A stretch of DNA of 5,995 bases, taken from NCBI RefSeq assembly GCF_003334385.1, contig NZ_QOWN01000079.1; one strand, given 5' to 3'. The position numbers and the translations under genes are program-made. This document shows, one piece after another, positions 1,100-5,816 of the stretch. The notes beneath the pieces are model-generated. The model worked only from the letters and a program-made list of their open reading frames with translations, searched no databases and was not told the origin of the DNA. The DNA is from Escherichia coli (GTDB lineage: Bacteria; Pseudomonadota; Gammaproteobacteria; Enterobacterales; Enterobacteriaceae). The stretch's first letter is position 1; every line of letters starts with the position of its first letter.

Positions 1100-1126
1100 C
1101 CCTTTCATTTTCCTGAAAGGGTTTTG
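1100..1126 (+). terminator. rho-independent terminator of the colicin transcript, overlapping the 3' end of the convergent immunity gene
   Basis: Stem CCCTTTCA (1100-1107), loop TTTTCC (1108-1113), stem TGAAAGGG (1114-1121), then TTTT (1122-1125) on the plus strand, 13 nt after the colicin stop codon at 1085-1087. Confidence 0.5.
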
Positions 1127-1452
1127 CAGAATATAAATATTAAGTAAATGGCAACTACAGGAACTGATATAACGAAACAGAATAATTCAAATATTACAGT
1201 TAAGCTTCCGCCAACTGGATTAGTAAAGAAGTCTTTTTGCCAGACTTCTTTCCCTGTAAACCTTATTACCATTTTCTGTATTATCTTCATTGAAAAAGGA
1301 AAAGTAATGGAGCTGATAATGCATCCGATGAACGCATAAAACATTCTTGAATTTTCCTGGTTATCTTTCCATCCCAGATAAAAAACTGTAAGAATAATGA
1401 AACCTGGTATCAGGCTTTTCAGAAAATACTTTACAGATATATCCGCTTTCAT
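1105..1452 (-). CDS. pore-forming-colicin immunity protein (colicin Ia/Ib immunity type), 115 aa, integral membrane
   Basis: Intact 115-aa ORF, convergent with and immediately downstream of the colicin remnant, which is the canonical arrangement for pore-forming colicins. It is strongly hydrophobic with several predicted TM segments (GFIILTVFYLGW, FIGCIISSITFPF, SLTVIFELFCFVISVPVVAIYLIFIF). An AAGGAG ribosome-binding site sits 7 nt upstream of the ATG on the minus strand (plus 1460-1465). Confidence 0.65.
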   Translation of the reverse strand: MKADISVKYFLKSLIPGFIILTVFYLGWKDNQENSRMFYAFIGCIISSITFPFSMKIIQKMVIRFTGKEVWQKDFFTNPVGGSLTVIFELFCFVISVPVVAIYLIFIFCKTLSGK

Positions 1453-1562
1453 CTGGTTTCTCCTTTATTGTCATCGTGTACTGGTGCGTGATAACATAAT
1501 GATAATAATAATCAATAACAATAAACTGTGTCACGTTTACATCATGGAACGGAGGTACTCCT

Positions 1563-1910
1563 GTGACTTTTGAGCAGAAAAAAGCCCGGGCCATTGCCCT
1601 GATGGACAGTAAAAAGATGTGGCGGAGCAATTATGCCCCTCCTCTTCTGCGTATTCTCTGGCGGCTGGGTATCCGGCTTCCGCCATTACCCTTTATGCCG
1701 TTCTGGCAGGTCACGGTGCTGACGGGGGGCTTATGGGGCATTTCCTGGGGATGTGCAATGTGGTTTATCTACTGGGGGCCGTCAGGAATGGTGGCAGGTG
1801 AGGCCATTATTATAAGTATCACGGGTGGTTTTTTGTTCGGACTGCTCATGGCCTCTTTCCACTGGTGGCGCAGGAAAGTTAACCGGCTGCCACCATGGGA
1901 TGATGTGTGA
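1563..1910 (+). CDS. small hypothetical inner-membrane protein (Trp/Gly-rich, two predicted TM helices); GTG start
   Basis: 115-aa ORF starting at GTG 1563, preceded by GGAGG (1549-1553) with a 7-nt spacer. Hydrophobic core VTVLTGGLWGISWGCAMWFIYWG and AIIISITGGFLFGLLMASF. A possible promoter is TTGTCA at 1468-1473 with TAACAT at 1492-1497. Confidence 0.5.
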   Translation: MTFEQKKARAIALMDSKKMWRSNYAPPLLRILWRLGIRLPPLPFMPFWQVTVLTGGLWGISWGCAMWFIYWGPSGMVAGEAIIISITGGFLFGLLMASFHWWRRKVNRLPPWDDV

Positions 1911-5362: not shown

Positions 5363-5447
5363 GTGTGTCTATTGGGTATCCATATAGTATCCTTTGGGCT
5401 TTTAATGGATATCTTTTAAGTATCTAACAAACATCCTGGGTTATCTC
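5363..5447. repeat. iteron cluster between parA and the adaptor gene
   Basis: tGGGTATCc 5373-5381, tAGTATCc 5385-5392, tGGATATCt 5406-5414, aAGTATCt 5418-5425, GGGTTATCTCATG 5438-5450. GTGTGTCT at 5363-5370 recurs at 5785-5792, and TATCTCATG at 5442-5450 recurs at 4566-4574. Confidence 0.4.
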
Positions 5448-5759: not shown

Positions 5760-5816
5760 ATCGGATACCTTAAGGGTATCTGATGTGTGTCTTTTAAATG
5801 CGTTATGGGGATTCTT
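5760..5816. repeat. iteron cluster downstream of the adaptor gene
   Basis: cGGATACCt 5762-5770, aGGGTATCt 5773-5781, GTGTGTCT 5785-5792, tatGGGGATTCt 5804-5815. These are the same motif families as the clusters at 4561-4712 and 5363-5447. Confidence 0.4.

Follow-up and report, generated by a model that had tools for sequence, protein, structure and literature searches.

The AT-rich hexamer tract at 1490-1525, which lies in the short gap between the divergently transcribed genes imm and ybaA on a plasmid fragment of Escherichia coli, probably works as a Fur operator for the repression of ybaA and possibly of imm; judged from sequence comparison, this reading is given a probability of roughly 65%. 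Most probably ybaA, rather than imm, is the regulated gene. We infer Fur binding, repression and the choice of promoter from the consensus match, its dyad symmetry, its overlap with predicted -10 hexamers and the recurrence of Fur boxes upstream of other DUF6404 genes. The initial annotation had named a Fur site as its leading option, with another AT-tract regulator or a curved AT-rich promoter as alternatives, and the same lines of evidence favour its first choice. It drew no distinction between the two genes as targets. Published expression data agree weakly with the Fur reading as well (PMC3438092).

The window, that is, the whole stretch of 5,995 nucleotides that was analyzed, is a mosaic plasmid fragment. 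Over positions 1000-2000 its identity is 99.5% with IncFIB plasmids, of which pEco118UIb is an example, and about 95.6% with colicin Ib plasmids of the IncI1/IncI-gamma groups from E. coli and Salmonella. The gene order is a colicin Ib stump, imm, ybaA, ydeA/ydfA, yedA, the recombinase gene resD and the partition genes yefA/yegA. At the left edge, 25 residues in frame 3 of positions 1-75 are presumably the N-terminus of an IS66-family TnpB-like protein, and a stop codon follows shortly beyond position 75. In pEco118UIb, the DNA adjoining the counterpart of this segment carries a cluster for lasso-peptide-like biosynthesis and an ABC exporter.

The imm gene (1105-1452, minus strand) was identified from the open reading frame, Pfam and RefSeq product names, and encodes a colicin Ib-type immunity protein of 115 residues. 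Its ATG occupies 1450-1452 and is preceded by the Shine-Dalgarno sequence AGGAGA, the reverse complement of 1459-1464. The protein matches the pore-forming-colicin immunity domain PF03526 (E 8.6e-7), and its DNA is about 93-96% identical to that of plasmids whose corresponding gene is annotated as 'colicin 1B immunity protein', so that the assignment to colicin Ib immunity holds. The ybaA gene (1563-1910, plus strand; open reading frame, Pfam and family alignment) starts with GTG at 1563, has the Shine-Dalgarno sequence GGAGG at 1551-1555 and encodes a DUF6404 membrane protein, also of 115 residues. The N-terminus of YbaA aligns with the DUF6404 family, and the match to PF19942 is full-length, covering residues 1-114 of 115 (E 2.1e-37). 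The protein keeps the family motifs SKKMWRSNYAPPLLR and NxLPDW, but the aspartate of the latter is replaced by proline (NRLPPW). Despite their equal length, a comparison found no homology between YbaA and Imm. Searches with YbaA for a function in NCBIfam, PADLOC and PDB sequences gave no matches.

The colicin gene itself is truncated. Intact cib homology is confined to 888-1087, which corresponds to about the last 66 codons and to the hydrophobic hairpin of the pore domain. The DNA upstream of the stump (596-887) is unrelated to cib and its reading frame contains stops, and the cib promoter is absent from the window. Because the colicin gene is truncated, imm is an orphan immunity gene in this plasmid lineage. 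Transcription of the colicin gene probably ends at a stem-loop in 1100-1125 (CCCTTTC-N8-GAAAGGG followed by TTTT); this stem-loop also takes in the 3' end of imm, which is on the opposite strand.

The run of six units that had first drawn attention to the region (GATAAC, ATAATG, ATAATA, ATAATC, AATAAC and AATAAA) is present at 1490-1525, one base to the right of the start given earlier as about 1489. Its setting was described correctly: positions 1453-1562 are exactly the imm-ybaA gap, and both flanking genes have intact open reading frames and encode small hydrophobic proteins. The A+T content is 86% in the tract and 64% in the entire 110-bp gap. The description of the tract as a run of NAT(A/T)AT-type hexamers was also borne out. 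On the plus strand perfect hexamers start at 1495 (CATAAT), 1501 (GATAAT), 1504 (AATAAT) and 1507 (AATAAT), with a mirror set on the minus strand; those at 1495, 1501 and 1507 are in phase and the one at 1504 is not. The units GATAAC (1490), AATAAC (1514) and AATAAA (1520) each agree with NAT(A/T)AT at five of six positions. In the hexamer model of Escolar et al., a Fur box reportedly consists of at least three contiguous NAT(A/T)AT hexamers, and the tract contains three, as in an E. coli-type Fur box.

The match to the longer Fur consensus sequences is centred on a predicted operator core, TGATAATAATAATCAATAACA, at 1500-1520, which agrees with the extended consensus tGATAATGATAATCATTATCa at 18 of 21 positions. 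The 19-bp consensus GATAATGATAATCATTATC is matched at 16 of 19 positions twice, at 1501-1519 and, six bases away, at 1495-1513. The latter match, CATAATGATAATAATAATC on the plus strand, reaches 3 mismatches only in a lineage with an 8-bp deletion, described below; the common variants have 4-5. In the model of Baichoo and Helmann, Fur is said to recognize a dyad of the 7-1-7 type, TGATAATnATTATCA. The sequence TGATAATAATAATCA at 1500-1514 has 1 mismatch to this motif on either strand, and a second 7-1-7 motif at 1506-1520 has 3 mismatches, as counted from the sequence.

The possibility was considered that the tract is no more than an AT-rich centre shared by two overlapping sigma-70 promoters and that neither gene responds to iron through it. 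The tract would then supply -10 hexamers and UP-like A/T runs, the resemblance to a Fur site would be a by-product of its (AAT)n composition, and H-NS may bind it non-specifically as horizontally acquired DNA. This explanation is the main rival but is unlikely. The best -10 candidates of both strands do lie within the tract, and a palindromic AT-rich site yields -10-like hexamers on both strands regardless of its function; moreover, the Fur core includes an (AAT)n run. However, composition does not reproduce the match. When the entire window was shuffled with dinucleotides preserved, none of 200 shuffles gave a 19-mer match with 3 mismatches. With the 110-bp gap alone as input, 20,000 such shuffles contained a 19-mer match at 3 mismatches or better in 0.015% of cases and a 7-1-7 match at 1 mismatch or better likewise in 0.015%. 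The corresponding frequencies were 0 and 0.01% when the shuffling was confined to the 46-bp AT-rich tract. Since the shuffles almost never recreate the match, A+T richness does not explain the resemblance to Fur sites.

Other kinds of element were also sought in the gap. No LexA/SOS box was found in 1453-1562 at 3 or fewer mismatches to the 20-mer, nor the LexA core pattern CTGT-N8-ACAG at 1 mismatch or fewer. Rfam gave no match to a structured or small RNA anywhere in the window, and the predicted fold of the ybaA leader is no better than that of shuffled sequences (z = 0.34). An 11-nt inverted repeat (1464-1474 and 1515-1525) that flanks the tract was taken as chance, because its arms lie on different predicted transcripts and are poorly kept in the ColIa variant.

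The Fur rule was calibrated by scanning the complete ColV-Ia plasmid pS88 (NC_011747, 133,853 bp) with the same threshold of 3 or fewer mismatches. Matches were found at nine places. Six of them lie upstream of iucA/shiF, cia, cvi-cvaC, cvaA, ORF123 and iroB, and two are the two copies of the imm-ybaA-type element. The genes behind the six promoters were induced about 5- to 355-fold by 2,2'-dipyridyl as measured by qRT-PCR (PMC3438092, Table 1). The induction by 2,2'-dipyridyl was significant for five of the six; cia was induced 5.11-fold (p 0.105) and reached significance in serum (PMC3438092). The threshold thus finds almost only iron-induced promoters on this plasmid, which argues against the explanation by AT-rich promoters. 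On the same scale, the pS88 sites before iron-responsive genes have 2-4 mismatches and the Fur site of the cib promoter, which has been linked to iron induction (PMC3879352, PMC4675545), has 2. By sequence score, then, the putative imm-ybaA site falls in the range of working Fur sites. The ninth place on pS88 (112000-112018, GAAAATGATAATCACTGTC, 3 mismatches) is close to iss and to phage Rz fragments but to no gene with evident iron regulation, and is the sole unexplained match at this threshold. The expression of iss on pS88 was 0.28-fold with chelator (PMC3438092).

The position of the core relative to the predicted promoters would suit a repressor site. The predicted imm promoter (1505-1534, minus strand) consists of the -35 hexamer GTGACA (1534-1529), an 18-bp spacer and the -10 hexamer TATTAT (1510-1505), and it agrees with the consensus at 10 of 12 positions. 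Its -10 hexamer lies at the centre of the Fur core, and an identical imm promoter is predicted in the ColIa and IncI ColIb variants. On the plus strand, the promoter prediction in the common variants places the ancestral form of the ybaA -10 hexamer, AATAAT, at 1504-1509. The full predicted promoter of ybaA reads ATGACA-18-AATAAT in the ColIa plasmids (10/12) and GTGATA-18-AATAAT in the IncI ColIb plasmids (9/12). The predicted -10 hexamers of both strands therefore overlap the Fur core, and both fall on one stretch of six to seven base pairs at the centre of the dyad (1504-1510). One operator could silence the two promoters together.

In the window the ybaA promoter has been altered. Alignments place the junction of an 8-bp deletion at 1498-1501, where CACAGAAT or an equivalent set of 8 bases was lost between AAT microhomologies, a form common to about 16 PLSDB plasmids. 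Relative to the common form, the deletion leaves the imm promoter and the Fur core intact. The -35 hexamer GTGATA (1488-1493) is now 10 bp from the AATAAT -10 hexamer, and because of this shortened spacing the ancestral ybaA promoter is probably disabled in the window. A substitute plus-strand promoter is predicted at 1468-1497 from a consensus match (9/12), with TTGTCA at 1468-1473, an 18-bp spacer and the extended -10 element TGn-TAACAT at 1489-1497. Transcription from it would begin within the operator, with the Fur core covering about -4 to +17. Predicted start positions are about 1498 on the minus strand and, on the plus strand, about 1504 in this lineage and about 1516 in the common variant. 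Through the same deletion CATAAT and GATAAC now lie in phase with the core, and this accounts for the second 19-mer match as well as for the length of the hexamer run; the two left-most hexamers adjoin the core only through this lineage-specific event. The Fur-consensus match is thereby improved rather than degraded.

These changes bear on whether the tract is a decaying relic that regulates nothing in this plasmid now, even if its ancestor did. The colicin gene reduced to about its last 66 codons and the ancestral promoter spacing cut to 10 bp are what such decay would leave. This is nevertheless very improbable, as both open reading frames are intact, the deletion spares the imm promoter and the Fur core and improves the Fur match, and a substitute extended -10 promoter is present.

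The operator appears to belong to ybaA rather than to its left-hand neighbour. The 26-bp core ATGATAATAATAATCAATAACAATAA and the 38 bp that separate it from the ybaA start were found in four different left-hand contexts, always with ybaA on the right. The left-hand neighbours are the ColIb imm gene, the unrelated ColIa immunity gene (iia), the ColV region, in which a yacB fragment lies downstream of the divergently transcribed cvaA, and yacAB directly. Plasmid pS88 carries the identical 26-bp core. This segment (1499-1524) was identical in all plasmid contexts examined with the exception of the variant at locus L006, which has one AAT unit fewer. There, yacAB abuts ybaA, the colicin locus is deleted, and the core at 2500-2518, GATAATAATC, has 5 mismatches to the Fur consensus. 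The length of the AAT run therefore varies between plasmids, and such variation in copy number fits an AT-rich promoter that owes its Fur resemblance to the trinucleotide run.

The core segment occurs in about 2,100 of the 72,556 PLSDB plasmids. Of 2,138 plasmids that match the 67-bp stretch 1499-1565, 2,095 do so with 95% identity or more. Together with the constant right-hand neighbour, this shows linkage of the core to ybaA. Conservation of the core was considered as evidence of selection and rejected, the core being identical at 26 of 26 positions and the ybaA coding sequence at 343 of 348. Because the entire right-hand module is about 98% identical between contexts, the invariance of the core is uninformative on selection, a point on the side of the AT-rich-promoter explanation.

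In the ColV plasmids, a second module of Fur core and DUF6404 gene is present at 18995-19405 of pS88 (L014) and at 2551-2961 of L004. It sits beside the truncated yacB, between the export gene cvaA and the strongly iron-induced ORF123. The pS88 copy of ybaA next to the ColIa immunity gene has a shorter annotation of 85 residues and may be damaged.

An operator that serves mainly imm, with ybaA as a passenger, was also weighed. Immunity would then rise when iron is limited, at the time when the CirA receptor is derepressed and colicin Ib is taken up. Several features suit this arrangement: GTGACA-18-TATTAT is the strongest promoter match (10/12) and is intact in every variant including the window, and its -10 hexamer in the middle of the core has the classical geometry of repression. 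In addition, the introduction of a preprint states, without data, that cib and imm are both Fur-regulated (10.1101/2024.06.29.601355). However, the operator is retained where the immunity gene has been lost (in L004, L006 and the second copy on pS88), and Fur boxes also occur at DUF6404 genes without a neighbouring immunity gene. Such a role for the site is quite improbable.

The published expression data for pS88 bear on both genes. The ybaA gene was induced 5.25-fold with chelator (p 0.197), 4.87-fold in serum, 8.90-fold in urine and 3.27-fold in vivo (PMC3438092, Table 1); p values were 0.10-0.20 and none of these changes was significant (PMC3438092). The known Fur target cia was induced 5.11-fold with chelator (p 0.105), 21.06-fold in serum, 6.03-fold in urine and 70.36-fold in vivo (PMC3438092). 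The chelator response of ybaA was thus similar in size to that of cia (5.25-fold vs. 5.11-fold). The authors counted changes of more than 4-fold with p <0.05 as real (PMC3438092). Because the ybaA values do not reach this level of significance, the induction is suggestive only. The signal is also open to confounding: cia has the same orientation, so that its transcripts may read through into ybaA, and the second DUF6404 copy may contribute. The ColIa immunity gene imm of pS88 was 1.10-fold with chelator (p 0.94), 5.58-fold in serum (p 0.048), 3.46-fold in urine and 3.17-fold in vivo (PMC3438092). The rise in serum, urine and in vivo would suit an operator for imm. However, this gene has the same predicted promoter as imm of the window, yet it was flat with the pure iron chelator, and the pS88 data speak against Fur as a strong regulator of the immunity gene. 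The geometry would allow imm to be co-regulated, but the single available data set does not support this. An unresponsive immunity gene and a ybaA response short of significance are also what an AT-rich promoter pair would give.

More distant relatives of ybaA provide a comparison outside this plasmid module. Searched for Fur boxes were 29 diverged DUF6404 loci, amounting to 146 kb, with 46-60% protein identity and with representatives that include Klebsiella, Serratia, Xenorhabdus, Salmonella, Kluyvera, Enterobacter and Yersinia. Five strong Fur matches were found, all within 300 bp upstream of a DUF6404 start, a zone that makes up 5.8% of the sequence searched, and none elsewhere. Because two of the loci (L025 and L026) are the same element, these are four independent cases. 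The centre of the box lies 55-69 bp before the start codon in L025-L027 and 53 bp before it in the window, and in L025 and L027 the predicted -10 hexamer is inside the Fur box. In a Salmonella homologue (L020, 2167-2500), the Fur box GATAATGAAAATCGTTATC, with 2 mismatches, overlaps a predicted -10 hexamer that precedes a small two-helix membrane ORF and then the DUF6404 gene. In L023 (141-5351), the DUF6404 gene lies between two genes for TonB-dependent receptors. The arrangements in L020 and L023 hint at an iron-related role for the family.

The boxes at these distant promoters, such as CGATAATCATTATCA and GATAATGAAAATCGTTATC, are not AAT repeats, which argues against a resemblance produced by the trinucleotide run. 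A Fur box is not a universal feature of DUF6404 genes, as most chromosomal homologues have none. As predicted from sequence, Fur control of the family is a recurrent feature rather than a universal one.

Earlier reports cover only part of this picture. Papers on colicin Ib describe Fur and LexA sites in the cib promoter (PMC3879352, PMC4675545). The searchable literature, which leaves out some figures and older sequence papers, contains no mention of a Fur box in the imm-ybaA gap, and no mention of DUF6404 was found in it. Nor did it yield reports of Fur binding, fur mutants or transcription starts for the imm-ybaA region, or a paper with the SL1344_P2 locus tags of the pCol1B9 genes. In the text and the supplements searched, a Salmonella fur-mutant transcriptome study does not mention cib, imm or ybaA (PMC5001712).

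If the tract is a Fur operator, it may work as follows. In iron-replete cells, Fe2+-Fur dimers would occupy the near-palindromic core at 1500-1520 and may spread across the flanking hexamers (1490-1525). Bound Fur would cover the opposed -10 hexamers at 1504-1510 and RNA polymerase would be excluded. When iron is scarce, Fur would depart and transcription would rise. CirA, the receptor for colicin Ib, would be derepressed at the same time, as would the colicin gene on plasmids that keep it intact. In the lineage of the window, where the 8-bp deletion has probably broken the ancestral ybaA promoter and has moved two extra hexamers to the core, the operator would act at the start site of the substitute promoter, on imm, or on both.

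A close parallel is the aerobactin iucA/shiF box of the ColV plasmids. Like the predicted imm-ybaA site, it is a single plasmid Fur operator in a short divergent gap with a membrane-protein gene on one side. The aerobactin site has reportedly been footprinted (de Lorenzo et al. 1987). On the same scale, it has 2 mismatches to the consensus and the imm-ybaA site has 3. The aerobactin operon and shiF share one common Fur box and both are induced by chelator (PMC3438092). The aerobactin site drives an induction of 8- to 45-fold, whereas that at the predicted imm-ybaA site is about 5-fold and not significant, and the genes at the latter, unlike those of aerobactin, are not iron-uptake genes.

The 'double lock' of Fur and LexA at cib and cia is part of one genetic module with the imm-ybaA site and is carried by the same plasmids. 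The imm-ybaA site is predicted to use the same repressor, and iron limitation would switch on both. The arrangement differs: the cib Fur site is upstream of the -35 hexamer and works with a LexA box, while the imm-ybaA site overlaps the predicted -10 hexamers and has no LexA box. In the enterobactin cluster, the overlapping divergent promoters of fepA-fes and fepB-entC are occluded by Fur within a compact region. The predicted imm-ybaA promoters would likewise form an overlapping divergent pair under Fur. The enterobactin promoters, however, are chromosomal, experimentally mapped and serve siderophore genes, whereas those of imm-ybaA are predicted and one of them serves a bacteriocin immunity gene.

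Two further sets of repeats were observed in the window. A perfect 17-bp palindrome, ATCATATCAGATATGAT, occurs twice, at 2852-2868 and 2888-2904, 36 bp apart and directly upstream of the ydfA-ydeA pair on the minus strand; paired in this way, the palindromes resemble an operator through which a two-gene module regulates itself. In pS88 the chelator lowered the expression of ydeA to 0.45-fold and that of ydfA to 0.17-fold (PMC3438092). Inverted and direct repeats that contain GGATATC are present at 4557-4569/4654-4666, 5396-5419 and 5774-5797, one of them a perfect 13-nt inverted repeat. They flank the ParA-like yefA and the small yegA and are likely centromere or operator sites of the yefA/yegA partition module.

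The novelty of these observations is modest. It lies in tying Fur to the uncharacterized DUF6404 family and in the overlap of a single putative operator with both opposed -10 hexamers, next to the gene for a bacteriocin immunity protein. As a Fur box the element would be of a standard type and its switch an ordinary one, with little practical consequence. A broader reading, offered as a long shot, is that YbaA and other DUF6404 proteins are members of the iron-starvation response in the Enterobacterales, sharing a Fur operator with the immunity gene on colicin Ia/Ib and ColV plasmids. Protection at the inner membrane would then scale with the derepression of the TonB-dependent receptors that import colicins and microcins, such as CirA, and YbaA would be an accessory protective factor, or one that modulates the receptor or TonB, rather than a passenger. 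If the operator is functional, it would be a second iron-controlled promoter region in the widespread colicin Ia/Ib module, and expression under iron limitation would be the first regulatory clue for DUF6404. Models of how colicin Ib shapes competition in the inflamed gut, which currently have Fur acting only at the cib and cirA promoters, would then be refined as well.
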